DNA from: Psammoneis japonica
Taxonomy: Eukaryota
DNA: 64,000 nt
NCBI GenBank assembly: GCA_008632985.1
Contig: QPGO01000023.1
Coordinates: forward strand, 741,681-805,680
Direction of reading: 5' to 3'
In this document: positions 22,230 through 52,320 of the stretch, piece by piece
Position numbering within the stretch: position 1 is the first letter of the stretch
Layout of the letters: each line of letters starts with the position of its first letter
Notes under the pieces: model-generated
Database searches by the model: none
Told to the model about the DNA's origin: nothing
What the model saw: only the letters and a program-made list of their open reading frames with translations
Position numbers and translations under genes: made by a program

Positions 22230-22234
22230 GGCAG

Positions 22235-22286
22235 ACTCTCTCTACTCTCTCTCTAGAGAGTGGATGGCAGCCACTGCAGATGGCAG

Positions 22287-22315
<29 letters not shown>
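22235..22315. repeat. (CT)n and (GA)n microsatellites
   Basis: ctctctctactctctctct at ~22235-22254 and about 14 GA units at ~22288-22315. Confidence 0.9.
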
Positions 22316-22317
<2 letters not shown>

Positions 22318-22329
22318 TCCAAAATCGAT

Positions 22330-25300: not shown

Positions 25301-27333
25301 AGAATGATGCAGATCATGGCAAAAATGGGAAAGGAAAAAAAGAAAATTGTGAAGTCTGCTGCTGAGTGGATGTCAGCTCCCAAAAAGCAATGTTGGAAGA
25401 TTTTATGAATGTGTGCTTCATTTGAAGATTGTTGGCTGCAGCATTCACAGATGTTCTTGCATGTGTCAACAAGAGCAGAAACTTTGGCTCCAGCAAATTT
25501 TTTGATGACTTCTGTGGTGGTGGTGCTGTCAGCAAGAGTGGAAAGGTTGAGAGCATCAAACCCCATCTCCAAAGGGTTGCAAAGTTGCTGGGTTCTGTGA
25601 TGAAGCAAGTTGCACCCGCTGGAGTCTTTGGTTGAAAATTGTTGTTGTCTTGAAGATCATGAGAAAAATGTGCATGACTGCATTGTGCTCCATCATGGAT
25701 GGATGCAGACGATGTGTCAGGTGTTGTTGAACAGGCCACCCAAGTTCAACAAGTGTGTGTGGCACCAGACACATGCAAGTGGAGACTGGCACAATTTGAA
25801 AGACTTGGTTGTGACTCTGCTTTGTGAAGAGAAGGCCAGCAATGCTCCGGCAAACTTTTGGTGGTGGAATGAGAAGGGGCAAAGGATTCATCATGGGTGA
25901 GAACATTGAATCCATTCAAAGTTGGCCGCTTGGTGCAGAAAGTCATGAAGGCTGGACATTGACTTTTTGTGCAGCTGCAACCACATGCATTGGTTGGGTG
26001 CACATGGCAAATTTCCTTTGTGGTGACACTTTGGAAGTGTCTGCCACTGGCAGCACACCCATTGTGGTTTTTGGGCACAACAATCTTTGGAACGGGCACC
26101 CCAGAGGGGGGACCCCCTGCCACTCCAAAGCCCACTTGGAGTTCAGCATCTGTGGCACACATCTTAGCACAGCCTGCAACACAGCCAGTTTGTGATGACA
26201 ACAACAACAGCTGCACACCAAATTTGCATGAATTGCAGTGCAAGGCATGGCTGGACTTCTGACTTCTTTGTGGCAAAGGGGGGTGACTTCTCAGTGCTGG
26301 AATCAAGGTTGATTGTTTCTGGAGCACAGCCTCTTGCAACTTTGGGGTGTGGTGTTTCAAAGAAATGATTGGCCACCTTGAGGTCTTCTTTGGCCTGCTT
26401 TGGACCTGCGCTTGTGCAACTTTTTTGAATGATTTGAGCCAACAGAGATGGCATGATGGAATCACCAATCGACCTCAACTTGCAAGAGTCACCAGCTTGA
26501 AGTCAACCTGCGTGGCATGCAGTGTTTTCTTGCTCTTGTTTTTGTCATGGATTTCTCTTGCTTTCAAACCCATTGGAGGTGCTGTTCATTGAGAACATTT
26601 GCAATTGTTGAGCACATGGCTTTCCTCATTTGAGAACCAGTGTGGTCAACCCAATGCAGCGTGAGTTGTTTGGGCATCAATTTTCCTTGTTTGTTTGGCT
26701 TGTTTTTGGGGACAGGTTTGTTGTTGAAATCCTTGTAGAAGCAGTTGTGACAAATCCCATTTTGTGACAAACCTTCCTTTTCTGCTGACAACCATTGCTT
26801 CGAATGGCTCAGTGCAACAATCAGCTCCGCTGGATGTTTCCATGAAGCATGCCTTGACACCTGGAAAGAAGCACAGCAGGAGGATCAAAAGGGGGCCACC
26901 TCAGAAAACACTCTATTTGGAAGGTGCCAACGGCAAGTTGGCAGCAATTGTCGTGAGTTGTCCTTTTGGCCCTGTTGGCTTTGTTGGGTGGGTGCTTGGC
27001 GGGTGGTGGCTCTGCAGTGGGTGCATGTTTGCATTGTGTGGTTTCATCCCATTTGGCATTGACTTTGGAAAAATGGGACCAGCAGATCAACCATTTGGCT
27101 CAGAGAATCAACCATCATCCAATTTTTTGCACTCAAATGGTTTCTTGTTGCAGCTGCACAAAAATGATTTCTCTTGCTGCATCTCCATGAAGAGGGTGAT
27201 GGAAAAAATTGGCTCTGTGAATTTAAACAGGTGCATTGCTGGGGTGAACCAAGGGCATTTCTTTGCACATTTGAACATGGGCTTGCATGTTGGAGACCGG
27301 CAAAGAGGTGATTTCTGATGTGTTGTGTTCTCN

Positions 27334-27390
<57 letters not shown>

Positions 27391-29320
27391 NGCATTGCTG
27401 GGGCAAGCCAAGGGTGTCTCACACATGATGTGGGTTTGCATGTTGGAGGCTGGCAAAGGTGAGTTTTGATGCATTCTGTGTGTGCCCCCATGTGCTCTGT
27501 TGCAGCCAAGGAAATGCTCTGTTTAAAAGCACACTTGCATTTGTTGTTCAAAGTGAGCAACTCCACAGTCAAAAAATCCAATCTTCTGGTGTGCACAGTG
27601 AATCCACTGAGCCTGAGCTTCCTTGACTTTGCCATGTTCTGTTTCATTGTCCACACCACAAGCTTCTTTTCTTTTCTCAAATTGCAGTTGTTTCAGCAAC
27701 TAAATTGTGAGAACACTGATCACACCATTTTTGGATGACATGGTTTGTTGCAGGAGAGTGACAAAGTTTTCTTCTTTGTCTTTTGGTTTGGCGCAAATGT
27801 CTCTTTTTCTCATTGAGAAGTGACAAGGATGAAAACATTCCATGCTTTCATTGGCTGACATTTTGAACCTTCAAGCGACACATCCAATGAGCACATTGAT
27901 GGACCACATGTGGTTTCACCCATGTCATTCTGCTGAAGTGACCAGTTTTTAGATTTTGTCAGGCTTGTCATGACAAAGTGGCATGGAGCCAAACTTCTCT
28001 TTTCATGTGCAAGTTGTTCGCGGCATTGGAGATTTGTGTGCACCACACCTGTTGCACTGCTTTTTGTTGATCCAGTGATTCAACAACATTGTTGCAAGTT
28101 TTGTTGTGTTTGCAGGAACAGTGGTTGAGTTGTTTTCTCACAACTTGTTGTTGCCATGGATCCATGGCTTGACACTGGTGTTGGAGAAGCAGCTGACACC
28201 AACACCAACATGTGCGCTGGCACAATGCCGACACCAGAGTTGTTGAAGTGACAGACTGCACATGGAGCCTTTGCAAAGAGAGCTGGAGCTCAAAAGTGTG
28301 GTTGCTGTGGCTCTGGTGCTCAACATCAAACATCCCATGGAAAGAAAGCAGCAGGAACAGCACTCCAAAATGGGGGCAACTTTGTTCAGCCAGAGATGTT
28401 GACAAATGCAAAGCATCAGAAGTTGGCTTTGGCTGCTCCTTCTGCTGCAACCACACTCTCCTTTTTGCAGATTTGGCAAATCCAGGATTTGCTTTCAGCA
28501 TGGCCATGCAAACCCAAACAGAAAGCTGCCAATTTGTGTCATTGATGCACCAGAGTTGGGTTGATGTTTTTAATCCCCAAGCCGCTGAAAGCAGAGTTCC
28601 GACCAACCCAAAGATGGGGCACAGTCAACGTTGAAGCTGACCACAAGTTGATGCCAGCAAAGAATTGGAGCTTGCAGTGCAAGACATTGAGTCTTGCTTC
28701 CTTTCTCACACAACTGTGTGAGGACTTCTTTGACGAAGTTGTTTTGCACACATGGCAAAACCATCAACACAACACAGGCAAGTTTGAGATTGACATTGAA
28801 AGGGTTTGTTGCACTGGTTTGTTCTGCAACAGGTCCAAAATTGGAAGCAAGGCTGCAAGCTGCCTGAGTGAACACAAGATGAAGGCATCTGCTTGTGCTC
28901 CAATTTTTTTGCCATGGAGCCAGATGACGTTCCCAAACATCTTTGCAAAGAAGGCTTTGCTGGCATGGAAACATGATTGTTTTTTGCACTGCCAATCACT
29001 TGTTCAGCAGCTTGTTGCTGCACTGTGATTTCTCCTGTTCTGACATGATGCAAATCATCATTTGGACAACACAATTTTCTGGAGTCTGCAACTTTCGATG
29101 CAAGCTGAGCAGCTTCAAACGACGGCAATTTTCTTCTTTCCTGTCTTTTTTGGTCTTTTTGCACAATTTCTTTTGTTGCTTTCCACTGACTCTCAAAGTC
29201 AAACAATTTGTTTTGGTTGCCACCAAGCAGGCTCCATGAAACTTGAGCATGTCCATGTGGCAGCTGACATTGTCATTTGCAAGAGACATGTTGACAATCA
29301 AATCAAACTTGTTTACAGCA
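22330..29320. mobile_element. TpA- and CpG-depleted block A: decayed repeat/TE-derived DNA of unassigned family
   Basis: TA nearly absent over 7 kb, CG rare, TG/CA in excess; fragmented protein-like frames on + (~22900-26590) and - (~27400-29300); ORFs nearly Tyr-free. Confidence 0.6.
27334..27390. repeat. (TG)n microsatellite flanked by single Ns
   Basis: 57 bp of perfect TG; N at 27333 and 27391. Confidence 0.95.
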
Positions 29321-35600: not shown

Positions 35601-37299
35601 ATTGACAAGAATGAGGTGTGACCAGCACAATTGACATGATGGCACAAGTGACTGCTGTCAAAGGAAGTGAACAAACTTGGAAGGTTCACCTCACAGGAGT
35701 TTACAATCTCACATCATTCGCAGACATCATCACAAAATGTGTCCAAATAAAACAGGTGCTTGGAAACAACAAGAGCAGCAACATTTCCACAATGCCCACT
35801 GGTGGGCACAGCAGGCAGTGTAGCACTTTTCACATGAAGTCGTTCAGTGCTGTGATGAGATTGTCCATGCCAGCCAATGAGCGATTTGCAGTTGTTGACA
35901 ACAGAAGAGGTGTCACACAGGCCTTGTTTGGTTGCATGCAGCACAAGAGAAAACTTGGCTTTCAAAGCACACATGAGTGGCATTGGGCACAATGACCTCT
36001 TTGATGCAGCCAGCTTTGGAGATTTTGTCAACTGCAGTTTGAGGACTCTTGTTGGTCATGCTCACATGAGTCTTGCTGGTGGGGGTCTGCTGGCATTGCC
36101 ACCTTTGGAGCAGCTGGTTTGACAATTGATTCAACCACTTGCTGGGCATCAGAGAAGTTGTCAGCAAAATGTGCAATGCCTTGTTGAACAATGCAATCTT
36201 GGAAAACCTGAGCAAATGATTTCTTGGGCTTGGTGTGACAGCTTTTTGTGCCATCAAAAATTCAGCAAGATCAAAGTTTGAACCCATCCAAACCACACTG
36301 GCTCTTGAAAAACAAAATGCATCTCAGCAAGAGCAGCTGTGGGGCCATTTTCAGGGCTCTTCAGTGCCACAGCATTGCTGTTAAAAAAAGAGTTGGCCAC
36401 ACAAATGCATGCCCTGCGTGCACTGCTCATCAAGAAGAGATTCAGTGTGTGAAGGAGAAAAGAGGTCAAGGGTGCTGGGCTTGATTCCAAAAACTGCAAG
36501 ATCATCTGGCACTTTTCCAGCACAGCTCATGACTCAACCACAGCCAACTGTCATGCACTGGGCTTCTCATTGACAAGCAACTTGACATGCTGACATTTTG
36601 GTTGGTGCTGTTCAACCACAGTGGGAGATTTGCTGTTTGCATCTCATGTGCATTGTTGCACCCACATTTCTCTGATTGTTTTTCCAATTGTGCTGCAACC
36701 ATGGACACACTTGCCCATGCTTGCATTCCACCCAAACATCCATGCACCATGCAGAAAGACTGCTGCAATCTGGGCAATGTGGAGCCACACCAAAGCAGCA
36801 CAATCATCACTCTTTTTACAAACACAGAGGTCTGCATCTCTCTTGAACCTGTGTTGCATGAGTGTTCAAAACAAACAAGCATTCTTCTTGTCCTGTCTGC
36901 TTTGAGCTTCCAGAGTTGTCCAAGACAGCTGGCATTGAATCACAAGTCTGTTTGAACAACAATGGCAAATCAGACATCGGCCACACAACAGTTGGTGGAG
37001 ACACTCCAGAAAACTGGGCATTGATCTGGCATTTTTGCATCAGACCATTGGGGAAAGCAAACCAGTGATGAGGAAGCTCCAGTGTGACATCCAGACATGG
37101 CATCCAATGGCTCTTTTCATGTTGAGGAGTTGACTCAGTTAAAAAGAAAAAAAAGATGGTGTGAGAGAATCTTGACCATCCTTGGGGCAAAATGTCGGGA
37201 GGCAGAATGCCAAAAATCTTGACAATTTTTAACAGGAGATTGCCTCAGACTCTAAAAGACACCAAATGTTGCTTGACAGCATGTTGAGCAAGTGGAGCA

Positions 37300-39090
37300 G
37301 GAGTGGTCCTTTCCACATCCAATTAAAAAGGAAGACACTGGGCCATGCTGTGCACAAGACTGTGCGAAGCAAAGCACTTTTGTGAGCAGATGCTCAAAAA
37401 GATGAGGTGAAGCACTCATGCAAGATTGGTGCATTGAACAGGGCAGACTGCTTGAAATGGGCAGCACTGTCACTTGCCATTCCAAAAACAGAACAAACAA
37501 CAGTGCAACTTGTCAGTGATTTTTGTGAGCTGAACAAGAGAACAAAGTGGGTGCCTCGCCATGCCCCACACACTCAGGACATGCTCTTAAAACTCAAGGG
37601 TTTCAGTGGACAAGCATTGCTTGATCTGAACATGAGCTGCCACTGCCACATGAAGCTTGGTGATGCAGCATTGCAGAAGCAAGCTTTGGACTTTAATTTT
37701 TCTGTGCAGAAAATGTGAGATGCAATGCCTGCCAATGGGCCCATGCATGCTCAAGTGGCAAGAAGACACTGGAGCCAAGGTCAATGCCTCAAAGTTGTTG
37801 TTCTGTCAAGCTCACTTGGAGCATCTCAGATGCAAGGTTGCCAGCAATGGCGTTCAACCCTTGAGGAAAAAGGTCAAGGCTGTGCAGTGCATTGCCAACC
37901 CAAAGACCAAGAAAGAACTTTGGCCACCATTTGTTGGCATGGTGAGCTGCTGCAAAGATGCACCACAGCACAGATTGAATGCCTTGGCACCCCTTGCAAG
38001 ACTTGCAAGCAAGACCTCTAAATGGGAATGGACTTCTGTCAAGGAGAGTGAAACACTCCAAAATGCCAAGCAAGCAGCATCAAAACAAGGTGCACTCCTT
38101 GCACATCCAGGCTGCAATGTGAGACATTTGAAGTTCACATCGACACATCCAAGTGTCAACTCAGAGCAGTGACATCTTAAGATGACAAACCTGGCCACCA
38201 CACTTTGCAAAAGAAAGCTCAATGGTGCTCAACCAAATTGTGCAACAATGGAACAAGAGCTGCTTGCAACCATCAAGACTTTGAAAGAACTCAGGTCTGC
38301 TCTCCTTGGTCATTGCACCTTTGTGTGCACTGATCATAAAAAATCTCATGCAAAGAATGTTGCCTTGAATCAAGATGTGGTGTCAAAGGTCATCAAAGTT
38401 TGGTTGTAGACTGTCTCAGTGGTCTCAACTTTGAGCCATTTTTGGACTCCAAGTGCAACCCAACAGTTGTAAAAGCCATTGAAGTGCATCCTCTGCATGT
38501 GAGGCCTTCATGAACAAAGTGAAGAAAATTGTGATGATTCCTGTTGGTTTCAAAAAAATTCTTTAACACAAACAGCAAATTGATCAGCACCTGTTGTTCA
38601 GCACTCATGCTTCATGCAATTCATGCTTCATGCAGTTTGCTCCACCGGGTCATTCCATTGAGGAGAAATGTCCAACAAACAGCTGACTTGTGGTCAGGAC
38701 AAAATTTGTGTCCCAAAGTCATTGTAGAAGCAGCTGACTGAGTGGTGCCAGCATGTGCAGTTGGTTGCATCATCCAGGAGAAACATGCACAGAAATCACT
38801 GATTTGCCCAGCATTTCTGCTTGCATGGCAGGAGAGTTGTGGTGTGCTTCATGTGCTCCAAATGGGGCTCATGTCAGAGGATGAAAAGGTGCAATCTCAA
38901 ATGCAGAAAGCTCCCAGAAAAAGTGGCAGAAATTGTCCCTTGGGAGACCCTTTGCATGGATGTGATCAGAGAACATGTGATCAAGTGCAAGAGTGAAACA
39001 CTGTTGCACTTGTGCAGTGACCATGATTGATCCAACAACCAGAAGGCTCAAAATTGTCCAAGCACTAACTGCCAAACATGTTGACATCAC
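37300..39090 (+). mobile_element. Degenerate Ty3/Gypsy pol relic (RT-RNase H-integrase order)
   Basis: WAA...IPK, VSDFCELNKR, QDMLLKLKGF, LDLNM, CLPMG, KVNASK, PKTKKEL..FVGMVSCC, RKLNGAQ.NCAT.EQELLA, VCTDHK, PWETLC.DVI, TMIDP; many stops, frameshifts and Y->C/H changes. Confidence 0.85.
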
Positions 39091-41199
39091 AGCAAATAAG
39101 AAAGTGCCTGCTGGCAACCACCAGCGCACCACAGGGCTGCTGCACAGGCCCTGTCAGAGTCATGCAAGTCAATGACAATGGCACACTTTGTGCACAAGAT
39201 GGTGCATTGATGGACATGCACAATCCAAGGCAGATTGCACCCTGTCATCAGTGGTCCATGCTGGTGCTTTGTGCTGACATTTGTCAAGGGGGAGCATGCA
39301 GCACACAACACTGGCTGGCTGCTGACAGATGTCAGCCATGTCCCATGATGATGTTGAACTTCCAGAGGCAAAGTCAGAGCCCCAGAAGTGCATGCTGCAA
39401 ATGCCCAAGTGAGCTTGCACTCATTTCAGTGAGCGGAAGCATTGGCACAATTGATGGCATCAGTTGTGAGTGATCCATGCACAGAGGTTGTGCAGTGACT
39501 GGCCATGAACATTGTGCCTTGGATGCATGAAAACTGTGTGCAAGGCATGCACTGGCTGTGCAGCACTCAAGTCATAAGCTGAACTTGGAGTGATGCATTT
39601 CATTTGTGGATGAACACACTCACAAAGCTGTGTGAAGTGAGCACAACTTTTGTGCAACCAAACATTTCTTGGCCAAATGAGCTGACTCAGAAATGTTCTC
39701 CCCCAACTGCAGCAGACTGCAATCTGTTGATCTGCCCAAACTCAAACACCAACTTGGTGCACAAGGCAATCTGGCATTTTCTCATGGCAGGATTTCTTGC
39801 CCTGGGAGAAAAAATGTCCTTTTTCTGACATGCAACATTTCCTGCCAGCACTCCAATTGAACAACATCTGCAAGTCAGCACGGTGCTCTCCTGCTCCTTG
39901 TTGTTGGATTGGAGCACTGGCCAGCAGCAACCATGAGCTTTTTGATTTGTGCCCCATTCTGTGGATGAGAAAATAAACTCAGATGTGTTCAAGTTCTAAG
40001 AAACAACTCTGCTCAGGCAAGTCACTTCATTTGTTGCAAATTGGCTCCACAAGTGCATTTTTGTTTGAGCATCTTTCACCACATGTTCAAAAGCCATCTG
40101 TCCACACAGCTGAGTGTGTTGTCAAGAGCATTTGAGTTGCACAAAAGAAGCAGTTGTCTGAGTCACTTTTTGCCAGTTTGATTCAAGTGGTTGCCTGTGC
40201 AACCCATTGTTTGATCTCTTTCTGTTTCTGAGATTTTTCTCTGGTGAGCTGTCGGCATTTTCTTTCTCTTGCTCAATGTCATCTCCCTTCTCATCTTTGC
40301 TGTTTTTTTGTCATCACTGACACCACCACTCTCCAAGGACTCTTCTTGCATCTTGTCTGTGTGCCCCTTGTCAGCGGCATCATCATTGTTGCTGTCGCCA
40401 TCACTGTCTTCTGCTGATGAGGTCATTCTCTGGTGACTTCCAACCTTCCATCAGGTTTTTTGCTGCCCTCTGCTCATTTTGACCCTTTGCTCCAACCTCA
40501 TCAGCCTTCTTGTCTTGCAGGCATTTGTCAGCAACTCACCACCCTTGCTGCTTTCCTCTTGCTTGAGCAAGAGGACTGTGGTGCCACATGAGTGCTCACT
40601 TTTCATTTGGAAAACAGCACAACAATGACAAGGCACTCATGCCAGCATTGGGTTTTTGGCTCGCCCAACTCACCTGATGACAAAGCTGTGGAAGATGAGA
40701 ATGACATCTTGCCAGTTGATGCTTGTCATTCTTGCACCATGTTTCAGTTTTTTGTGCTGGTGGCAGCCGCGGTGCACTGGTTGCTCTAAACTTGACTCAT
40801 CCAACTGTTTTGGCCAACCATGCTAACCCAACATCCAAGTCAATGAGTTCCAACATTTGCAATTTTTTGTGAAGCTTTCCCCCCATTTTGAATCTGAACA
40901 AATGTCCTGAGCTGCTTGACCTTTTCAAACATTGCTGTCAAGCAAAGCTGAGCATGTTGAATTTCACCAAATGTGCTCATTTTTTAACATTTCATTGAAC
41001 AAAGCATTGTGAGAGAACACCATCCAATTCAGCCCCAAAAGAAGCTCAAAGCTTTGTCACCCATTAAAGACTGGGCATCTGTCATGTGTGGCATTCTTGC
41101 TCAGGACTCCACCATGCAACAACTCACCAATCCTTGCTCATGATGTCCCTTGCTTGCACAATTTGTCAATCTTTGCTTGGGGCATGCCAGATGCAGAGC

Positions 41200-42210
41200 T
41201 GTTGCATTTCCCAAAATGGCACGTGGCACCAAGAAGGTTGGCAGGGTTGATCTCTTGTCATGCTGCCACTTTTCACCTCCATGGTGTCTGGGGGAGGAGA
41301 CTTGAAATTTGATGCTGGCTGTGGTGCTGGAGGTCCAAATGGGGTGCACCAGCCAAACATGAGCTGCAGACCAAAGGCTTTGAGGGTGTTTGGTGGGTGC
41401 CAGGCATCATTTTAAAACCATGGCAGACAGTCACAGGGTCAGTCTCTTGCCCATGCAGCCCATTCTCACCTGCACGTCTGGGGTGCAAGACTTGAAACTT
41501 GATGTTGGCTCTGGCACTGGAGGTTGGGGCAGGGTCGTGCATCAGCCAAACAAGTGCAGGCTGAAGGGTCCAAGGGTCTTTGGTGGGTGCCAGGCATCAT
41601 TTTGACAACCATGATGGGACAGCCAAAGGGCGAATCTTTTGTGCCCATGCAGCCACATGCCACCTGCATGTCTTTGGGAGGAGACTTGAAATTTCAAATG
41701 GCTGGGGTGCTGGAGGTCAAAATGGGGCATGCCAGCCAAACAGAAGCTGCAGGCCAAAGGGTCCAAGGGTGTTTGATGGATGCCAGCATGCATCCCTTTA
41801 AGAACCATGTTGGACAGTCACAGGGTCAATCTCTTGCCCATGCAGAGCCACTTCTTGTTGCCTGCAGACATGTTTGGCAAAGGATGCTTGAAGTGTTTGA
41901 TGCTGCCAGTGGTGCTGGAGGCCAAAATGGGTTGCACCAGCCAGACTGCAGGTGAAAGGCTCCAAGGGGGAACCACAACAGACAGTTGCATGGCAAATCT
42001 CTTGTCCATCACACACACAGCCCATTCTCACCTGCCTGGGTGGGAAGGAGACTTAAAATTCAGTGCTGGTGGAGCTGTTGGAGGTCAAAAGGAGGAACAT
42101 GACCTGCCAGCCAAACAACTGCAGGTCAAAGGCTCTGATGGTCTTTGAAAGGTGCCAGGCATCTTTGAAAACTGCCATGGGCTGTTGCAGGGTCAATCTC
42201 TTGCCCATGA
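41200..42210 (+). repeat. Degenerate tandem array, about 5 units of ~165-200 bp
   Basis: Recurring gacttgaaa..tgatg(c/t)tgg, ccagccaaaca, ggtgccaggcatc and cagggtcaatctcttgcccatg; anchors at ~41299, 41489, 41683, 41885, 42050. Confidence 0.8.
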
Positions 42211-42304
42211 GCTGGCTGGGAATCTGGCACATTGGCCTGGGCAGTTGCACCACACTTGCCCATGAGCTGGCTGGGAATCTGGCTCATTGGCCTGGGCAGT
42301 TGCA
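42200..42304 (+). repeat. 55-bp tandem duplication
   Basis: cttgcccatgagctggctgggaatctggc(a/t)cattggcctgggcagttgca at 42200 and 42255. Confidence 0.9.
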
Positions 42305-43111
42305 TCAGCACCAACATGAAAAGAGCTGTCATCTGGAGAACCCAACTCAGCCACTTCATCAGGAACAGCAACACCTTGACCAGAAAGACCAGGAGCTGCA
42401 TGACCAGATCAAATCAGTTGTTTGTTGTGGTGCATGGCCTGGGAAGAGGTGTGTTGGAGGATCCATCAAAGCCTCCTCTCCAAGAACATCTTTTCTCCAT
42501 CATTGGGGAACAAGTGTGGGTTGACAAACAATGGGAGCTCAAACCCACAACTGATGACACAACACCAGTGATGAGCTGCAAACCAAAGCATGAAATCTGT
42601 GCTTCAAGTGCTGCTGCACTTCCCGCAACTCCAGCAACAAGCTGGATGCTGCGCCAAAGCAACCAGCAGCAGCGCTGCTTGTGCCTCCCCAGCAGCAAAG
42701 TGTTGAGCCTTTGGCATGCTTGACTTGAACACAGGCTTTGCCATGGCCAGAGCAAGGTGCTCACAACCAAATTCAGCAAATGTGCCTTGTTCTTCAGCAA
42801 GCAATCATCAACTCTCAAGTGGATCACACCTTCTCCTTGGCTTCCATGCTGCAGTGCTGCACCATGTTCCCAGTTTCTGAGTCATGACCATGAATGTTGT
42901 TGTCATGCAAGCCCAACAGATCTCGCCACTGAGGCCAAAAACAAAAGTGCCAGCCACAGCAGCTGCCCAGCCCAAATGCCATTTCTCAAGTTCTGGCTCT
43001 GGGAAGACACAACCCTCTCAATGATGTCACTGTCCAATGCTGTCCCAGGAGACTGCAAATGCTTGCACACTGCAGCACACCTCATGAGGATGTCTGGATG
43101 TTGATGCAAGT

Positions 43112-43387
43112 TGACAGGATTTGAACAGGATTTAGGTGCGCGCGAAGTATCGCGCGCTGTTTAGTTTACCGTGCACAGTTTTGTGTGCTTTAGTTCCGCG
43201 CGTTCACGCGCGATGTAGTTTGCTTTCGAGCCACAAGGCTCACAAGAATAATAACAGTAGCCCGATTATACCGACTTACACGTCTTTCGGCTCCTGTAAC
43301 GGTCTCTGAGCGGAGACTCATCTGCTATTTAGACAGCAGTAAGGAGTTATTGTTTGAATTCTTGCCATTTGCCTTTATTTTCTGTCA
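43112..43387 (+). repeat. 5' LTR
   Basis: TGACAG...CTGTCA inverted termini; aligns without gaps to 49968-50243; 18 TA dinucleotides. Confidence 0.97.
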
Positions 43388-43402
43388 GATTAACAGTCTT
43401 GC
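43388..43402 (+). promoter_or_regulatory. Putative primer-binding site complementary to the anticodon arm of tRNA-Asn(GUU)
   Basis: GATTAACAGTCTTGC directly after the LTR; its reverse complement GCAAGA-CTGTTAA-TC has an Asn anticodon loop with paired GA/TC stem bases. Confidence 0.65.
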
Positions 43403-44350
43403 TCATTGTCAACCCATTGAGCAACCGCCATCGTCGTCGTTGATTTACCAACGACGCTATTTCAATTCTACGTGGACCCCGTATATATCCTACATACATC
43501 GGCAAGTCTACGCGCATTCAATACCAGGGCATCGGCAGGAAGTTAACGTCACCGTCAAGTCTCCTTACCGCTGGATATCTGGATTGATTATACTACCTTT
43601 GATCGCTGAAGACATACATTCAACGGTCATATCCAAGTCTATCCTTGATCCTCATCCCTTGATATACCTATTCATCGGTTAACGGTCAAGAACCCTACAT
43701 ATTCAAGGATCTTCGTCGCTGAAGACATATATATATATACATATCTTCACGGCCAAGAACCTGTACCCACTCTTCGGACTGCGGTTTTGCTGCCACTCTA
43801 CAAGCACACCGAGTCCATTGCACCTGATCTACCCCGGACTGCTGGTGCTCTACAGTTCTACTAGGTCCACGAGGACGACTGTGAGAGCAAGCAGCCATGA
43901 TTGCAGCCTGCGTTGGGGCGAGGGTGCTTTCCCGCGTTTGTTCGTTCGTCCACAGCGCCCAACGCCTGCGTCAACTGGCCAGCCTGATCGGGAAATCCAA
44001 CCGACATAAAATAAGAACGGTTCGGGGGTCTTGTCCACCTCTGGTCAGCTTACCTGCAGGGGTTTACAACCCGCTGCTCCGCTCGCAAGCAACCCAAAGC
44101 GCCACCAGCTGCGGGTTCGGACGTGCCGGCACAACTCTGCGGACCGGACAGGAAGTTTAGCACTTGACAACGAACGGGATGACAAAGCCCGGCGACTTCT
44201 GATTTTAAGACAGTTCAAGATTTCAAGTCAAGTCCATTTCAAGTCAAGTCTGTTCTCACCCAAGTTTCGAGTCCACCTTCTCACCCAAGTTTCGAGCCCA
44301 CCTTTTCTTCCCAACCAGAATTGATTGTCCTGACACCACTTTTGTCTACC

Positions 44351-47300
44351 ATGGTTCTCACTCGTCAGCAACAAACCGATGGTTTCGAGCACGTGGTTGG
44401 AACCGTGCTTGCCCAAGGTGCTGGGAGTCCTCTCCGTTTGGCTTTGGCCCAAGACGGCACGGACTCGCATCAGGAACTGTTCACGTTCATGCCGTCCCAA
44501 ATCGACTCGCTTGAGTGCGACAACGGCACTAATGTAATCCCTTTGCCCCGTGGTTATAAGAACATGTTAGCAGCACCAGTCAGTCTGTACATTGTCAAAG
44601 CACACAAAGGTCTTGATGTTGCCAACGACTCCTCTTTGTTCACGCATGACGAGTTCCTCGCCTGCCGCCTCAGCCCCGACTGCATGTCTTCTGTGTCCAT
44701 CGGCAGCTCACCCCTTGCACCTCCACATGTCACCAACCCGACCAAGGCACGCGACCCGGTGCAGGACTTCAAGCGAGGCATCAAGCGTGATCCCACCGCT
44801 TTCACGGCCCTCAAATCCGACAAGCAGTGGCACACTTGGCACACCTCACTTGTGGCACAAGCCCGTGCCCAAGACGTCGAGTGCATTCTAGACTCGTCGT
44901 ACAAACCGACCAGCCCCGAAGACAAACTGCTCTTTGCTGAACAGCAAAAGCACATGTTCGCCGTCTTCGAACGCATCCTTCTCACCGACAAGGGCAAGGC
45001 TCTCATTCGCGAAAATGTGGGGTCTTCTGACGCACAGACCGTCTGCCGCTCCTTGTCTGAGTGCGCGCTTGCCTCCACCCGCGCATCTGTCGAGTCCTCC
45101 ACCCTGCTCACGCACCTCACCACCGCGCGTCTCGGTGATGGCACTTGGAAAGGTCCGACCCACGGGTTCATCCTTCATTGGCAAGATCAGTTGCGCAAGT
45201 GCGAGGCACTCATCCCGGCCAGTGACCACTTCTCTGAAGGACAGAAGCGCGTCATGCTCGAGAATGCCGTGCACCCTGTCGAGGAACTCCGTGCTGTCAA
45301 GAACCAAGCTGATCAGCATCGTACGCAGAGTGGCAAGAGCCTCACATGCGATCAATGCTGTGGCTTGCTCCTCTCCGCGGCAGCTCAGTACGACAGCACG
45401 TTTCAACCCAAGACGACACCTCGAGCTCCCCGACGTGCCATGTGCGCACACGACGTCTACTCCGAGGAACCGTCCGACGATGTGTTCTACGACATTGACA
45501 GCGACGTTGACGTCCTCCAAGCCAATGCTGCCTGCACCCGCAGTCCCAGCCTCACCGGTGTCCAATGGAGACGTCTCCCTCCCGACCACCAACGGCTCTG
45601 GGATTCGTTGCCCGATTCCTCCAAGGCGATCATCCTTGAGCATTCTCGTCCACCTCCCCGCAACCCGCGAGCCAGCAACTGCCATGAGTCTGTTACGGCC
45701 AACCTTCACGACCAACGCCTTGGGAGTGACGGTGATGTCAACTTGTCCAACACGACTCCTGCTGACTCTGGTGACTCCGCTCCACATGTGGACGCCACTT
45801 CGGATGATCCCATCCTGGCGCACCTCACCAAGCGCAAGCCACTGCCACCCGGTGATCTGCAACGTCTGTTGTCTCCTAACCAAGCCCCCAATGCCAGTCG
45901 ACCGGGGCCATCCGCCGCTTCCTCTACCCCGCCAGCTTCTGCAGATGACATGGAACTTAACGGCCGCACTTGCCGCCGCGTCAACAACCACAATGTCATT
46001 TGCTCTGCCTCTGCTCATCGCTCCACACGCACTGGCGCTCTAGTCGATCGTGGGGCCAACGGCGGCATTGCTGGCGACGACGTTCGCGTCATTGCACGCA
46101 CCTCTCGCCAAGTCGACGTTCAGGGCATTGACGATCATCAATTGGTGGACATCCCCATTGTCACCGCTGGTGCCGTTGTTGAGACCCAGCGTGGTCCCGT
46201 CATCGCCATCCTCCATCAGTGCGCACACACGGGCAAGGGCAAGACCATCCATTCCTGCGGCCAGCTCGAATGGTACAACCAAGATGTCAACGATCGCTCT
46301 GTCAAGGTGCCCAACGGCTTGCAACGTATTGCCACTCCTGATGGCTGTGTCATCCCCATTGACATCAAGGCTGGCCTGCCTTGTGTTGCCATGCGACCTT
46401 ACAATGACGCCGAATGGGACACCCTGCCCCATGTCATCCTCACCGGTGATGACACATGGGACCCTTCCGTCCTCGATCACTCTGTCACTGACGACGACCA
46501 GTGGTACGACGCGATCTCTGACCCACAGGACGATCCCACTGCCAACCCATTTGACGAATGCGGCAACTACCGTCATCGTGTCGTTGTCAACGAGACCATC
46601 ATGTCCGCTTCCTTGTCTGCCGATCACGCGTCCGCCCTCGATGATCACCTCATTCCGAACGACGACGTGTTCTACGAGTGTCATCTGCATGCGATTGGCC
46701 CCCAGGGCGATGACGTTCCACCTCCGGAGCGCACTGTACAGCCCAAGGACCCCCCCTTCGAGTCCCTCCGGCCTTGCTTTGGCTTCCTACCCACCGATGC
46801 GGTCCGTCGTACTTTTGACTGCACCACGCAGTGCGCCCGCATGCCCGCCGGTACACACCTTCGCAAGGCCTGCAAATCACCCAACCCCGCCCTTAATGTG
46901 CACCGCCGCAACGAGCCCATCGCCACTGACACCGTTTATGCCGACACCCCGGCCGTCGACTCTGGTTGCACCAGCGCCCAACTGTTTGTTGGCACCGAGT
47001 CTACCGTCACTGACGTCTACGGCACTGAGACGGACAAAGAGTTTGTCAACACACTCGAGGATCAGATCCGTGAACGTGGTGCCCCATCCAAACTCATTAG
47101 CGACCGTGCTCAAGTTGAGATCAGCAACAAAGTGCTCGGGATCCTGCGCGCTCTCTTCATCTCTAGCTGGCAAAGTGAGCCTCACCAGCAACACCAAAAC
47201 TTTGCCGAACGTCGACACCCGACTGTGAAGCGCATGGCGAACACTGTCATGGATCGTTTTGGTTCGCCCGCCCACACATGGCTGCTGGCGCTCATGTACG

Positions 47301-50020
47301 TGTGCTTCACACTCAACCATGCAGCGTCCCCACGTCTCCACTGGCGCACGCCCCTCGAGACTCTCACTGGCTCCACCCCGGACATCAGCCCATTGCTTCG
47401 CTTTCACTGGTGGGAACCCGTGTGCTTCCACCTCGATGACTCCGATTGGCCGTCCGAATCCCGTGAGTTGCGTGGACGCTTCGTTGGCATTGCTGAGCAC
47501 GTCGGCCACCAGATGACCTTCAAGATTCTATCTGACGAGACTCAGAAGATCCTCTACCGGTCCAACGTCCGCTCCGCTGCCCCCGATCCTGCCGTTCGAA
47601 ACCTGCGTCTTGATCCTCCTGATGGGGAGCCACCTGAACCCATCATCAAATCTCGCCATGACGACAACCCCGTCGACTCTCCTGATGGGGAGATCAGGAC
47701 ACCCAAGATGCCAGTTTTCGATCCGCAAGACATCATTGGACGTACCTTCCTCATGCAGCCACAAGAGGACGGACAACGCCACAGAGCTCGCATCGTCAAG
47801 GCCGTCGAAGACCACGAATGGAAAGTGAACGGCAATCCCGAGCTCACTAAGTTCGTCTGCTCTGTCAACAATGACGAATACGAGGAAGTCCTTGCCTGCA
47901 ATGACATCATGAATCACATTGAGCAAGAAGACGAAGACACCACTGTTTGGAAATTTCGACGCATCGTGTCGCACGAAGGACCTCTGAAGCCTCACGACCC
48001 AACCTGGAAAGGCTCCAGCTACAACATCATGCTTGAATGGGAAAGTGGGGAGATCACGTCCGAGCCTCTTGCCATCATCGCCAAGGACGACCCCGTCACC
48101 TGTGCCATCTATGCACGAGAGAACGGACTCCTCGACACGGATGGCTGGAAGCGGTTCCGCACCATCGCGAGGCGCCAAAAGAAGCTATTTTGCATGGCCA
48201 ACCAAGCCAAGCTTCGCTCCTTCCGCACTGCACCTCGCTACAAGCATGGATGCGAAGTTCCCCGGAACTACAAACACGCCATGTCACTAGACGAACGCAA
48301 CGGCAACCGCAAGTGGGGAGACGCAACTAATCTCGAGATGGACCAACTCGACGAATACGAAGTCTTCCATGACTGCGGGCCCTTCAAGTCTTCCACTCCT
48401 CCTGCGGGACACAAGAAGATCCGAGTGCACCTAGTGTACGACGTGAAACACGACGGTCGCCACAAGGCACGACTCGTAGCCGACGGGCACCTCACAGACG
48501 TACCTGTCGACAGTGTCTACTCCGGAGCAGTCTCCCTCCGTGGCCTTCGGCTGATGATTTTCCTGGCCGAACTCAACGAGTTGGAGACATGGGCCACCGA
48601 CATTGGCAATGCCTGCCTTGAAGCCACCACCAAGGAGAAGCTTTACATTGTAGCTGGACCCGAGTTCGGCAAACTCGAAGGGCACATCCTTGTCATCCAC
48701 AAGGCACTGCATGGACTGCGCAGCTCCGGTCTCCGCTGGCACGAGCGCTTCGCCGACTGCCTGCGAGCTGAAGGCTTCTTCCCCTGCCGCGCCGAACCCG
48801 ACATTTGGATGCGCAGGAACGGCGACCACTGTGAATGCATTGCCGTTTATGTGGATGACCTCGCCATTGCCATGAAGGACCCTCAATCTTTCGTCGACAC
48901 TCTCACGGAAAAGCACAAGTTCAAGCTCAAGGGCACGGGACCCATTGAATTCCATCTGGGTTGCGACTTTTCCCGGGAACCCGACGGAACCTTGTGCCTG
49001 TCTCCGCGCAAGTACATCGAGCGCATGGTCGACAGCTGTGCCCGACTGTTTGGGGAGAAACCCACCACCAACGCCCTGTCACCTCTAGAGAAGGGTGACC
49101 ACCCCGAACTGGACACTTCTGAACTGCTGGGACCCGATGGCATTCACAAGTTCCAGTCTCTTGTTGGTTCACTCCAATGGGCAGTGTCCCTTGGTCGAAT
49201 TGACATTGCCACGGCCGTCATGTCACTCTCTAGCTTCCGAGCTGCGCCCCGTCAAGGCCACTTGGATCGTGCCAAACGCGTCTGTGGGTGCCTCTCCAAG
49301 ATGCGACACGGTGCTCTCCGCGTTCGCACGGAAGAGCCCGACTGTTCGGATCTCCCTGCTCTGGCCTATGAATGGATGCATTCCGTGTATGGTGAAGCAG
49401 AAGAGATGATCCCGAAGGACGCTCCACCGCCCCTTGGCAAGTTCGTCACTGCCACCCACTACGTCGATGCAAACTTGCACCATTGCATGCTCACCGGACG
49501 CTCTGTCATGGGAATGCTCCACTTCCTCAACAAATTCCCGGCTGATTGGTTCTCTAAGAAACAAGCCACCGTGGAGACTGCGACCTGCGGGTCTGAATTT
49601 GTTGCCGCAAGGACTTGTGTTGAGCAGATTATCGACCTGCGCATCACCCTGCGCCACCTTGGCGTCCCGATCCGTAACGTTAGTTACATGTTCGGTGACA
49701 ACAAGTCGGTTGTAGACAGTGCCACCATCCCGCACTCCAAGTTACACAAGCGACACACCGCACTGTCGTTCCACCGTGTGCGTGAGGCAATTGCCTCTGG
49801 TTGCCTTGAGCTCCACTTCATCGAAGGCTCCCGCAACCCTGCTGACATTCTCAGCCAGCATTGGGGTCACTCCCAAATCTGGGACCTTCTCCGCCCCCTC
49901 ATGTTCTGGAACTTCATTCCATCCGAAGTCGAATCTGTTTCTGTGGCTCCTCAAGCAAACTGGGGAGTGACAGGATTTGAACAGGATTTAGGTGCGCGCC
50001 AAGCATCGCGCGCTGTTTAG
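44351..50020 (+). CDS. Copia Gag-Pol polyprotein; ORF intact but many conserved Tyr changed to Cys/His
   Basis: Protease LVDRGAN; integrase D(ATD)..D(ISD)..E(FAE); RT YDVKHDGRHKARLVADGH and YVDD; RNase H YVDA, GSEF, FGDNKS, NPADI. Confidence 0.93.
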   Translation: MVLTRQQQTDGFEHVVGTVLAQGAGSPLRLALAQDGTDSHQELFTFMPSQIDSLECDNGTNVIPLPRGYKNMLAAPVSLYIVKAHKGLDVANDSSLFTHDEFLACRLSPDCMSSVSIGSSPLAPPHVTNPTKARDPVQDFKRGIKRDPTAFTALKSDKQWHTWHTSLVAQARAQDVECILDSSYKPTSPEDKLLFAEQQKHMFAVFERILLTDKGKALIRENVGSSDAQTVCRSLSECALASTRASVESSTLLTHLTTARLGDGTWKGPTHGFILHWQDQLRKCEALIPASDHFSEGQKRVMLENAVHPVEELRAVKNQADQHRTQSGKSLTCDQCCGLLLSAAAQYDSTFQPKTTPRAPRRAMCAHDVYSEEPSDDVFYDIDSDVDVLQANAACTRSPSLTGVQWRRLPPDHQRLWDSLPDSSKAIILEHSRPPPRNPRASNCHESVTANLHDQRLGSDGDVNLSNTTPADSGDSAPHVDATSDDPILAHLTKRKPLPPGDLQRLLSPNQAPNASRPGPSAASSTPPASADDMELNGRTCRRVNNHNVICSASAHRSTRTGALVDRGANGGIAGDDVRVIARTSRQVDVQGIDDHQLVDIPIVTAGAVVETQRGPVIAILHQCAHTGKGKTIHSCGQLEWYNQDVNDRSVKVPNGLQRIATPDGCVIPIDIKAGLPCVAMRPYNDAEWDTLPHVILTGDDTWDPSVLDHSVTDDDQWYDAISDPQDDPTANPFDECGNYRHRVVVNETIMSASLSADHASALDDHLIPNDDVFYECHLHAIGPQGDDVPPPERTVQPKDPPFESLRPCFGFLPTDAVRRTFDCTTQCARMPAGTHLRKACKSPNPALNVHRRNEPIATDTVYADTPAVDSGCTSAQLFVGTESTVTDVYGTETDKEFVNTLEDQIRERGAPSKLISDRAQVEISNKVLGILRALFISSWQSEPHQQHQNFAERRHPTVKRMANTVMDRFGSPAHTWLLALMYVCFTLNHAASPRLHWRTPLETLTGSTPDISPLLRFHWWEPVCFHLDDSDWPSESRELRGRFVGIAEHVGHQMTFKILSDETQKILYRSNVRSAAPDPAVRNLRLDPPDGEPPEPIIKSRHDDNPVDSPDGEIRTPKMPVFDPQDIIGRTFLMQPQEDGQRHRARIVKAVEDHEWKVNGNPELTKFVCSVNNDEYEEVLACNDIMNHIEQEDEDTTVWKFRRIVSHEGPLKPHDPTWKGSSYNIMLEWESGEITSEPLAIIAKDDPVTCAIYARENGLLDTDGWKRFRTIARRQKKLFCMANQAKLRSFRTAPRYKHGCEVPRNYKHAMSLDERNGNRKWGDATNLEMDQLDEYEVFHDCGPFKSSTPPAGHKKIRVHLVYDVKHDGRHKARLVADGHLTDVPVDSVYSGAVSLRGLRLMIFLAELNELETWATDIGNACLEATTKEKLYIVAGPEFGKLEGHILVIHKALHGLRSSGLRWHERFADCLRAEGFFPCRAEPDIWMRRNGDHCECIAVYVDDLAIAMKDPQSFVDTLTEKHKFKLKGTGPIEFHLGCDFSREPDGTLCLSPRKYIERMVDSCARLFGEKPTTNALSPLEKGDHPELDTSELLGPDGIHKFQSLVGSLQWAVSLGRIDIATAVMSLSSFRAAPRQGHLDRAKRVCGCLSKMRHGALRVRTEEPDCSDLPALAYEWMHSVYGEAEEMIPKDAPPPLGKFVTATHYVDANLHHCMLTGRSVMGMLHFLNKFPADWFSKKQATVETATCGSEFVAARTCVEQIIDLRITLRHLGVPIRNVSYMFGDNKSVVDSATIPHSKLHKRHTALSFHRVREAIASGCLELHFIEGSRNPADILSQHWGHSQIWDLLRPLMFWNFIPSEVESVSVAPQANWGVTGFEQDLGARQASRAV
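49962..49967 (+). promoter_or_regulatory. Short polypurine tract
   Basis: GGGGAG immediately 5' of the 3' LTR. Confidence 0.7.
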
Positions 50021-50243
50021 TTTACCGTGCACAGTTTTGTGTGCTTTAGTTCCGCGCGTTCACGCGCGATGTAGTTTGCTTTCGAGCCACAAGGCTCACA
50101 AGAATAATGACAGTAGCCCGACCACACCGACTCACACGTCTTTCGGCTCCTGTGACGGTCTCTGAGCGGAGACTCATCTGCTGTTTAGACAGCAGTGAGG
50201 AGTCATTGTTTGAATTCTTGCCATTTGCCTTTGTTTTCTGTCA
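49968..50243 (+). repeat. 3' LTR
   Basis: 276 bp; 12 substitutions relative to the 5' LTR; only 8 TA remain. Confidence 0.97.
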
Positions 50244-52320
50244 CAAGTGGTGCTGCACACCAGTCACCGCAGATGATCGGGCAGAGATTTGCTGCCAAAA
50301 GACAAGCAAAGCCCAGCTGATGGGCAAGTTTTTCAACAGTTGTTGGCTCAGCAGAGGATCATTGGGTGGAGTGTTGGTTGCAACCAGCAAAAGAGAAAAG
50401 CCCAACTGATGGGTGAGCCAATCTGGGATTGTGCAGTTGGCCAAGATTGCACTGGTGCTGGCCCCAGGGTGGCATGCATGGCAAGACAAATTGAGCAACA
50501 TTTCAAACAAATGTCTCACATGGCTTCTTGAATGGACAACAGTTGGACAAGTTCATCCTGCAATGCACTTGTGCTGCTGTCAGACTTGTCATCTTTTTCC
50601 AGCACTGGTGACTCATTCCTTTCATCATGGCCACTGGACTTGTTCCTGCCATTGTGACCACTGGGCCACCCATTCCTTCAATCACGGCCATTTGTGAGCA
50701 ACAAACATTGAGTCAGCACCAGTCATGAACAATGCCACAAGGACAAAAATTGTGCAAATTGCTCACCTCACCATTGCTCTGCTGCTGGACAACAAAAACA
50801 AAAAAGAAGCATTGTTGTGTTCAACATGCTGTCAAGCTCCACTTTTTGCATGTTTGCTGCCTCCATTTCAAGCCACAAGAATTTGCTGACCATGCCTGGG
50901 ATTTTTTCAGACTTGCTTTCAGGTTTGCCACAGAGGAGCTGTTTTTGCCCCCATCCCTGATGTGCAACATGGAGGTGGCTGCATCCAGGCTGTGTTGAGC
51001 AGTGCCAGGATTGGACATGTTGACACCTGAGCTGGCTGGAACAAGGCAAGCAAACTCATGGGGAGAGTGAAAGAGTTGCCGTGGCAGCCAACTGCTGCCT
51101 TTCACCTGCAGAGGATGGCTTTGCCCAGAAAGTCAGCAAGGTCAAGAAGGGCTGCTCAAAACCTTCTGGGTCTGCACCACTTTTCATGCCAGCAGCATTG
51201 TGCGCCACGCCGTCAGCTTGTTGCAAAGCTCCTGCTTGACCCTCTGAGCCTTGCAACATCTGGTGCATGGGAAGCAATGGCTCTGTCATTGAGGTGAAAG
51301 ACCTTGAGAATTGGGACATTTTGGAAATGATTGGTCAGACTGCACTTGCCAAAGTCATTGTGCAGAAGTGCGCAGTCATTGGGGTGCCTGGGTTGCTTTC
51401 TTTGTCAAGTGCAACATGCGAAGCTTTTTGGCGAAGGTGCTGGGAGGCTCTCTGGAACAGAGGGTTGCTGAGAATCTTGATGATTTGAGAATCTTTTGCT
51501 GGCCTCCAGTTCTCAGAAGTGCTGAAGGAGGGCTTGTTAACGCGCGCACTTTGTCCTTCCAGAAAACTGGTGCCACATTTTTCTTGCAAAATTGCCCTCA
51601 CTTCCCGGGTTTCCCTCACAAGGTTGAGGTGACCCCCCTTGCCCTGGCCATTTTGTGGGATCCCCAAATGAGCAAAACCAAACTGTGTTGTTGTTGTGAA
51701 GAAGCTGCTTGCAATTGCAGCAAAGATCTCTGAAGCCAAGTGCTTTTGTGGGCACAATGCTCCCATCCACAAGCATCTTCTCTTCTGCTGTTGGCAGCCC
51801 TTCAACATCACAACCATGGGCAGCCAAGAAAAGCTTTTGACTGAAGAAATGAGGGGTTGGCGCAAGCCCCCCACTTCCTTGTCATGTGGTGTGCCATCAA
51901 AACACAGCGAAGCGACAAAGAACATTGCCAACAATGACACAAAATGAAAAACAGAAACCTGCAAAAACTGACAAACAGCAGTGGCAGCTCACCAACAAGA
52001 TGACTCAACAACAAGAAAAGAGCAACAACAACACAGCCTGTCAACAGCAATTGCAAAACGAAAACAAGACACAAGCAAACACGGAAAAGAGAAGCATCAT
52101 CATCAACAACAAAGCAATGGCAAAGACAGTGCAAATGTGCATGCAAAAAAGATGAAGCATTGCAAACGCTCCGCAATGTCAACAACCACGACACACAGGA
52201 AGAATCAACAGCCTGATGGCCTTGCAATGGCTTAAGGTCCTTCTTTCCATTGAAAAGCCATCTGATCAAAGGCAGGCATTGTTCTTTCCCATGTGAAGTG
52301 ACATGCCTTTGATCAGACAG
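50244..52320. other. TpA- and CpG-depleted block C (continuation of the DNA interrupted by the copia)
   Basis: TA nearly absent; Tyr-free spurious ORFs; joined to 43111 through the TSD. Confidence 0.75.

Follow-up and report, generated by a model that had tools for sequence, protein, structure and literature searches.

In ascomycete fungi, repeat-induced point mutation (RIP) changes C:G into T:A pairs, mostly by turning CpA into TpA, and it raises TA, lowers GC content and creates stop codons. APOBEC3, whose targets include retroviruses and LTR retrotransposons, deaminates cytosine on minus-strand complementary DNA (cDNA), which leaves strand-specific G>A changes before integration; RIP and APOBEC both operate through cytosine. 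ADAR carries out A-to-I editing on double-stranded RNA only, with a preference for a 5' U. To our knowledge, hypermutation of invading DNA by A:T>G:C changes at TpA was not known from any eukaryote before a 2026 preprint on the chlorarachniophyte Bigelowiella natans. Here we analyze a 64,000-nt stretch (hereafter the window) of the genome of the diatom Psammoneis japonica (assembly GCA_008632985.1, contig QPGO01000023.1, positions 741,681 to 805,680), in which a young, complete Ty1/copia-type long terminal repeat (LTR) retrotransposon has probably had most of its TA dinucleotides turned into TG or CA by a TpA-specific process.

That preprint (Mettrop et al., bioRxiv 10.64898/2026.01.13.699255) reports that, in B. 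natans, giant-virus and virophage DNA integrated in the genome is hypermutated at TpA. In mutation-accumulation lines, 230 of the 231 mutations in two integrated viral regions were A>G or T>C, all 230 of them at TpA, and the mutation rate of these regions is ~1000 times that of the remaining genome. The authors propose, without testing it, an ADAT2-like adenine deaminase, and they report that TpA-poor genes are enriched in reverse-transcriptase and DDE domains (Mettrop et al.). The terms CpG, LTR, copia, retrotransposon and tyrosine do not occur in its text. A search of full-text literature, with most subscription journals outside its coverage, found TpA>TpG/CpA hypermutation only in this preprint and nothing of the kind in diatoms.

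Conserved tyrosines of the Gag-Pol protein read cysteine or histidine

The Gag-Pol open reading frame (ORF) of the element encodes a protein, P0001, and 1571 relatives were found in the database (E <= 0.001). Over the Pol part the best of them share 65-75% identity with P0001, and they mostly come from metagenome contigs of ~7 kb. P0001 was aligned with 79 full-length relatives (80 sequences, 50-60% identical overall). A first-pass annotation of the window had pointed to six copia motifs in which a conserved tyrosine appeared as Cys or His. All six were found in the translation (IGNACLEA, KALHGL, DHCECIAVYVDD, ETATCGSEF, LRHLGVP and GHKKIRVH), and the majority consensus of the 80 sequences reads IGNAYLEA, KALYGL, YEYIAVYVDD, ETATYGSEF, LRYLGVP and GYKKIRVH. 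The codons that it had listed, TGC at 48614, CAT at 48710, TGC at 49586 and CAC at 49655, were located correctly.

We then counted replacements at conserved positions, as the annotation had proposed. At the 29 columns in which at least 90% of the 79 relatives carry Tyr, P0001 retains Tyr at 11 and has Cys at 13, His at 4 and Phe at 1. Of the 551 remaining conserved columns, 27 deviate in P0001, and the difference from the Tyr columns (17 of 29 with Cys or His) is highly significant (Fisher p = 5e-15). The identical test on each of the 79 relatives gave on average 0.13 Tyr>Cys/His changes and at most 2, so the relatives do not carry Cys or His at these columns and the claimed conversion of conserved copia tyrosines stands, with Tyr changes far in excess of other replacements. 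With a looser cut (Tyr in at least 60% of the relatives; 53 columns), P0001 contains Tyr 20 times, Cys 18 times, His 9 times, Phe 5 times and Trp once. Tyr columns that are invariant in all 79 relatives are changed at P0001 positions including 336, 551, 1183, 1422, 1454, 1496 and 1746, and from this loss of invariant tyrosines the proteins of the element are likely dead.

The amino acid composition of P0001 is shifted in the same sense. Its Tyr content (1.59%) is the lowest among 121 tabulated proteins, the next being 3.13%, and the 79 aligned relatives have a mean of 3.80% and a minimum of 3.13%. Cys amounts to 2.59%, against a mean of 0.90% and a maximum of 1.23% in the relatives, and His to 4.45%, against a mean of 3.53% and a maximum of 4.26%. 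The low Tyr content is a mutation signature and not a peculiarity of the protein. P0002 and P0004, top-scoring matches on contigs of Mb size, were considered as further cases and rejected; both belong to ordinary elements from a different organism, and their Tyr is normal.

The changes are concentrated at TpA

To characterize the mutation spectrum, we examined the 741 columns with at least 80% conservation, at which P0001 deviates 82 times. These deviations comprise 17 TA>TG, 7 TA>CA and 1 ambiguous change; outside TpA there are merely 2 A>G and 2 T>C changes, and a further 5 are of CpG type. The remaining 48 (27 transversions and 21 multi-step changes) are ordinary family divergence. The 34 single-step transitions among these deviations include 28 or 29 that are A>G or T>C, and 24 or 25 of the A:T>G:C changes lie in TpA versus 4 elsewhere. 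The possibility raised in the first-pass annotation that non-TpA replacements are equally frequent is not borne out by these counts.

The depletion of TA is not limited to the tyrosine codons. Per 1000 codons, the three codon phases of the ORF contain 15.9, 9.0 and 11.6 TA, and 25 full-length relatives contain on average 37.4, 42.8 and 73.3 (minima, 30.8, 16.9 and 36.0), so that the ORF lies below the relatives' minimum in each phase. The observed/expected (o/e) ratio of TA is 0.27 in the ORF versus a mean of 0.74 over 79 metagenome loci of relatives.

In principle the polarity could be the reverse: the 5' LTR and the leader that follows it would have gained TA by RIP-like C>T changes at CpA/TpG, and native codon usage would account for the scarcity of TA in the ORF. 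The 5' LTR and leader are indeed TA-rich (o/e 0.93-1.05), and fungal RIP makes TA from CA or TG. Yet the Tyr codons that read Cys or His here are conserved in 79 relatives, the TA of the ORF falls below the range of 25 relatives in every codon phase, and the pairs of CA and TG found among copies of the family (see below) need a TA ancestor. We regard the reverse polarity as extremely improbable.

The LTR pair sets the direction and the stage of the changes

Both LTRs are 276 nt long, run TGACAGG...TCTGTCA and are 95.7% identical, with 12 differences. At 10 of these the 5' LTR has TA and the 3' LTR has CA (5 sites) or TG (5 sites); sites in the opposite direction number 0 (binomial p = 0.002 for 10:0). 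The other two are one T>C outside TpA and one transversion, so that 11 of the 12 differences are A:T>G:C and 10 of these 11 lie at TpA. The copy is young, with only 2 non-TpA differences over the 276 nt of LTR.

Because the 5-bp target-site duplication is intact, both LTRs stem from one insertion. They were identical at integration, and the 10:0 asymmetry therefore indicates that TA was ancestral. One-sided changes of both types are present, so that at least some of the action followed integration, and both strands were affected. RNA editing is an unlikely source, because RNA edits would be copied to both LTRs, and editing of the minus-strand cDNA is insufficient, because the sense strand would then gain T>C only. 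The LTR pair and the conserved columns establish the direction of change, its specificity for TpA and its action on both strands, and they place it after integration at least in the 3' LTR.

The distribution of the changes along the element was also examined. No same-strand clustering was detected by hand count, either among the LTR changes (6 runs among 10; expected, 6) or among the Tyr changes (14 runs among 27; expected, 13), and there is thus no indication of processive editing along one strand. The ratio of Tyr>Cys to Tyr>His is 18:9, and this strand bias is not significant. By thirds of the protein, Tyr was lost at 9 of 12, 5 of 15 and 13 of 26 columns, with no 5'>3' gradient.

These data bear on the possibility that editing took place during retrotransposition, with an ADAR- or ADAT-like deaminase acting, much as APOBEC3 acts on retroviruses, on the genomic RNA (giving A>G in the sense strand) and on the single-stranded minus-strand cDNA (giving T>C in the sense strand), so that insertions would be born mutated. 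Such editing could account for the many copies that show different outcomes at one TA and for the outcomes common to 97% of the summed contig depth at two sites (see below), which suggest inheritance through replication; the spared 5' parts are the LTR and leader, which in the retroviral model are single-stranded for the shortest time. It does not readily explain why the LTRs differ at 10 TA, with 5 sense A>G changes in the 3' LTR only, since edits in U3 RNA would reach both LTRs. The absence of a 5'>3' gradient of Tyr loss and the saturation of flanking DNA that is not part of the element also argue against it, and in B. natans the same signature arises in integrated single-copy DNA. Editing during retrotransposition is therefore unlikely.

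Other copies of the family carry alternative outcomes at the same TA

Contigs from four sequencing runs of one sample were placed on the element at 80% likeness (14,732 contigs). Their summed depth on the element is ~1e5 versus 65-120 on the flanks; the copia family is hugely repeated. The copy differences (X1) consist of 111 A>G, 119 T>C, 77 C>T and 64 G>A changes and 52 transversions in all, so that nearly all are transitions. We inspected 40 of the 429 difference rows, all between 43852 and 47220. Twenty of these rows form 10 adjacent pairs in which the window copy has CA where the others have TG, or vice versa; a single step from TA leads to either state, and the ancestor was therefore TA. 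The first-pass annotation had taken TA to be ancestral from the tyrosine codons; the LTR asymmetry and the CA/TG pairs now back that view independently, and all three lines of evidence indicate that TA was the ancestral state.

The signature was also found outside this genome assembly. One metagenome contig of 2561 nt, L079, is a copia relative with a TA o/e of 0.33 and with Cys or His at 7 of 20 conserved Tyr positions. Its changes lie at other sites or have other outcomes than those of the window copy, with the opposite outcome (His versus Cys) at 4 columns, and it is an independent hypermutated copy. It is the single case among 79 metagenome loci; the other 78 are without the signature. Some of the metagenome relatives (L004, L005, L007, L021, L022, L039 and L067) are poor in CpG (o/e 0.16-0.25) with ordinary Tyr (Tyr was checked for L007); they represent ordinary methylation decay without the TpA signature.

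An artefact of assembly or polishing, in which many copies were merged into a mosaic consensus or reads erred systematically at TA, has to be considered in a family of this depth, for which no contig spans the assembled copy. The effect, however, is limited to mobile-element DNA with sharp edges, and the host genes in the window are normal. Short contigs of the runs reproduce the TG and CA states of the window copy, a mosaic would not yield the 10:0 asymmetry of the LTRs, and an independent metagenome contig carries the same signature. We consider an artefact very improbable.

A spared 5' zone and a flanking-base preference

The first 751 nt of the element (43112-43862), which comprise the 5' LTR and 475 nt of the leader, contain 58 TA at an o/e of ~1. 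From 43863 onward the TA o/e is 0.27-0.37, and the edge is sharp. Three short contigs of other copies differ little in the spared zone (0 to ~3) versus 3-5 differences per 160 nt directly downstream. Because the target duplication is intact, exchange between elements is excluded as the source of the spared zone. As candidate explanations we consider gene conversion, selection on cis-acting parts in copies that are mobilized in trans, or a shielding of the promoter and leader. A (TA)6 microsatellite survives at 43728-43743 in the spared leader; in the mutated zone, ATAT occurs 0 times versus ~27 expected from its density in the relatives.

The survival of TA, measured against the relatives, depends on the neighboring bases. 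It is 0.00 for ATAT, 0.08 for ATAC/GTAT and 0.47-0.51 for CTAA, CTAG and GTAC; TA flanked by A or T was lost most, and TA adjoining a G:C pair was lost least. The LTR pair, which requires no assumption about ancestry, gave a similar picture, with 1 of 7 C-TA/TA-G sites changed versus 9 of 11 others (p = 0.013). CTA and TAG contexts resist change.

This preference is also relevant to the chemistry. Instead of adenine, thymine in TpA could be modified (for example to 5-hydroxymethyluracil by a JBP/TET-like enzyme) and mispair with G, or an enzyme-free bias of repair or replication could operate at flexible TA in silent chromatin. TpA is self-complementary, so that T>C on one strand and A>G on the other are indistinguishable and all our counts fit both; the preferential loss of A/T-flanked TA (ATAT, 0.00; GTAC, 0.51) would fit a dependence on local opening of the DNA. 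No feature of the sequence opposes this alternative, and what stands against it is that the sole published proposal, made for B. natans, is an ADAT2-like adenine deaminase, itself hypothetical. We rate thymine modification or an enzyme-free bias as quite unlikely.

Blocks nearly free of TA and CG flank the element

The copia element lies within a block of DNA that is nearly free of TA and CG, and a second, unrelated block of this type is present elsewhere in the window (Table 1). In the left flank, CA and TG make up 97% of all pyrimidine-purine steps. The density of these steps is 235-243 per kb in the blocks versus 235 in ordinary DNA of the window, and the share of TA and CG among them falls from 41% in ordinary DNA to 3-5% in the blocks. 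The step density is unchanged despite the loss of TA and CG; transitions alone would yield such a composition. Across the window, gene regions mostly have a TA o/e of 0.5-0.7, versus 0.27 for the copia ORF and 0.01-0.09 for the blocks, which establishes that the depletion is confined to mobile DNA with sharp edges.

A remnant of a gypsy-type RNase H (RT_RNaseH, PF17917; E = 8.9e-8) was found at 38173-38406 (+) inside the left block. It was the single credible match in a Pfam scan of 144 ORFs of at least 70 amino acids in the blocks; the other 4 matches were far under the cut-offs. The three TA-free blocks are not similar to one another, except for internal repeats of ~190 nt. In our reading, the blocks are old mobile DNA that has been through both the TpA process and a slower CpG decay to completion, and the young copia element has had time enough for the TpA process only.

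Some further features of the blocks were observed. Degenerate direct repeats of ~190 nt, 64-88% alike, occupy 41300-42310, just left of the copia insertion site. The block at 22301-29300 shows a strong strand asymmetry with TG > CA (GC skew up to +0.25; G, 0.266; C, 0.199). It matches nothing in Pfam, resembles none of the other blocks and contains the letter N at 27333 and 27391.

A probable TpA-directed editing of integrated mobile DNA

Taken together, these results suggest that a TpA-specific process turned most TA of the young, complete copia element into TG or CA, and we consider it probable that this represents host-directed editing of integrated mobile DNA of the B. natans kind. The changes are A:T>G:C transitions at TpA on either strand, by which Tyr codons (TAY) became TGY (Cys) or CAY (His). 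In the simplest chemistry, adenine would be deaminated in 5'-TA-3' and read as G at the next replication. Repetition over generations could continue until TA is exhausted, as may have happened in the fossil blocks on either side, where the slower CpG decay would also be complete. Copies would be crippled by missense changes with their frames staying open.

Several observations weigh against this interpretation in its simplest form. The 5' LTR is untouched, as is the leader over its first 475 nt, which is not what simple recognition of an element or a repeat would give. TA is depleted by 57% in the Tyr phase, a figure that the loss in the 3' LTR (56%) matches, and by 79-84% in the silent phases; the stronger depletion in the silent phases points to an inherited or native share of the TA loss. 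The other outcome is found in 97% of the summed contig depth at 46177/8 and at 46792/3; part of the loss is inherited along lineages and was not acquired after insertion. Part of the high GC content is native, as the relative L001 has a similarly C-rich third position with a TA o/e of 0.84. Finally, no contig of the four runs spans this exact assembled copy, and the single sample behind these runs may itself have given rise to the window.

A more far-reaching interpretation is that diatoms, or at least this one, hold a targeted TpA>TpG/CpA defense on integrated retrotransposons that is the same as that of the chlorarachniophyte and part of an old system spanning the SAR group (stramenopiles, alveolates and rhizarians). 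This defense would follow a targeting rule (an edge at ~750 nt that spares the promoter LTR and leader, and refractory CTA/TAG contexts), would make TA- and CG-free blocks together with CpG decay, and would be able to spill into host genes. We see the chances of this broader interpretation as evenly balanced.

Comparison with known systems

The present case shares every sequence-level feature of the B. natans process. In both, the changes are nearly only A>G/T>C, occur only at TpA and give TpG and CpA on either strand; foreign or mobile DNA alone is affected, with regional boundaries and action on integrated DNA; and TA is depleted over the long term with a gain of CA and TG. The two cases differ in host, a diatom (stramenopile) here and a chlorarachniophyte (rhizarian) there, and in target, which here is an LTR retrotransposon family present in very many copies and there consists of single-copy viral inserts. 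Three features set the present case apart: TA is near zero in the old blocks together with CpG loss, a spared zone lies inside the element, and the flanking bases matter. The rate in B. natans was measured in living lines, whereas the present case is known from sequence alone.

Like RIP, the process leaves genome-level transitions in one dinucleotide context across transposons, can saturate and may leak into neighboring genes. Unlike RIP, it destroys TA, raises GC content and can create no stop codon, and whereas RIP hits both duplicates, the two identical LTRs here fared 10 versus 0. APOBEC3 resembles it as a deaminase-type hypermutation that leaves dead, transition-riddled retroelement copies; here, in contrast, the altered positions are A/T on both strands, and at least some of the changes came after integration. 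The preference of ADAR for A>G with a preceding U/T is similar, but ADAR would give A>G on one strand and identical LTRs, and here T>C accounts for 5-6 versus 5 changes in the LTR and for 9 versus 18 at the Tyr codons.

With this window the signature extends to the diatoms, a second group that is distant from the first and dominates ecologically. The very many copies of the family amount to thousands of natural replicates for studying the targeting rule, the sequence preference and the speed relative to CpG decay. Conserved Tyr replaced by Cys or His in frames that are still open provides a protein-level detector for genomes and metagenomes. Annotators should take a long open frame in such a region as a by-product of stop loss and not as a sign of function.

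The open reading frame without stops

The first-pass annotation had noted that the ORF runs through ~1890 codons without a stop or frameshift, and the frame at 44351-50020 indeed has 1889 codons and one terminal stop and is colinear with full-length relatives. According to a check of the codon table, A>G and T>C turn no sense codon into a stop, so that stops can only be removed, and all six frames of the region are stop-poor. With A>G/T>C changes making no stops and a copy this young, one would expect all 1889 codons to stay open, and the intact frame is uninformative on function. The further claim that the element was disabled by missense and not by nonsense, unlike RIP, is upheld for the Tyr missense changes, which are opposite to RIP; the open frame itself is nothing special, and disablement is presumed from the tyrosine loss. 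A lost stop codon was considered since the tail of the ORF enters the LTR, and it was rejected because several relatives do likewise.

Element architecture and neighborhood

The complete Ty1/copia-type LTR retrotransposon spans 43112-50243, with direct repeats of the TG...CA form, a 5-bp target-site duplication and a leader of 963 nt between the 5' LTR and the ORF (Table 1). The reverse transcriptase is of copia type (RVT_2, PF07727; E = 3.6e-26; 92.7 bits versus a cut-off of 31.6). A profile of the family gave a weak match to retroviral integrase cores (E ~1e-3) at profile positions 922-1022, upstream of RVT_2 (~1340-1560), and Pfam found no rve domain in P0001 or in the unmutated relative P0003. 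Searches for further copies of the element within the window (tblastn with 5 relatives, blastn of the element) found none, and no RNA data set was listed as containing the element.

Table 1. Coordinates of the copia element, its flanks and the second block in the window
Feature	Position	Strand	Remarks
Target-site duplication CAAGT, left copy	43107..43111	.	Identical 5 bases directly adjoin both LTRs
5' LTR	43112..43387	+	276 nt, TG...CA; 18 TA, o/e 0.93; spared
Spared part of leader	43388..43862	+	TA o/e about 1.0 (1.05 over 43388-43830)
Mutated part of leader	43863..44350	+	TA o/e 0.37, CG o/e 0.84
Gag-Pol ORF (P0001)	44351..50020	+	1889 codons; TA o/e 0.27, CG o/e 0.95, GC 0.574
Reverse transcriptase domain	48398..49036	+	P0001 residues 1350-1562; Pfam RVT_2, residues 1406-1618 of the stop-to-stop frame
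3' LTR	49968..50243	+	8 TA; 10 of the 18 TA of the 5' LTR gone (5 to CA, 5 to TG)
Target-site duplication CAAGT, right copy	50244..50248	.	
Left flank, block nearly free of TA and CG	35801..43111	.	TA 3.8/kb, CG 3.7/kb
Right flank, same block continued	50244..52300	.	
Second, unrelated TA/CG-free block	22301..29300	.	7 kb; 12 TA, 73 CG, 709 CA, 898 TG

The neighboring genes have long exons and encode DUF72, signal peptide peptidase, BRF1/TFIIB, an HSF-type factor, glutaredoxin, RIO1 kinase and Nipped-B. For the RIO1 frame, all named best matches are diatoms, at 58-71% identity. This agrees with a diatom host, as the first-pass annotation had guessed, most likely one whose close relatives are absent from the sequences of that database.

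Possible spill-over into neighboring ORFs

The ORFs beside the 7-kb block (21200-22300 and 29600-31000) have low TA and normal CpG. A spill-over of the TpA process by ~1 kb into neighboring ORFs is possible, with numbers too small to conclude.

On the right side of this block, an ORF with FG-GAP repeats (29592-32348, +) contains 1-6 TA per 200 nt in its first 1.4 kb (29600-31000) and 5-13 thereafter, with normal CpG, and the TA-poor part encodes a low-complexity charged stretch. At the left edge of the block, a DsbA/Thioredoxin_4-like ORF (21342-22241, -) is TA-poor with normal CpG and contains 13 Cys and 2 Tyr per 300 amino acids. In this ORF, His replaces a Tyr that is found in 179 of 247 aligned relative domains, and the CPxC motif is broken and reads CP-C. 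The thioredoxin-like ORF may represent either TpA spill-over or a degraded gene.

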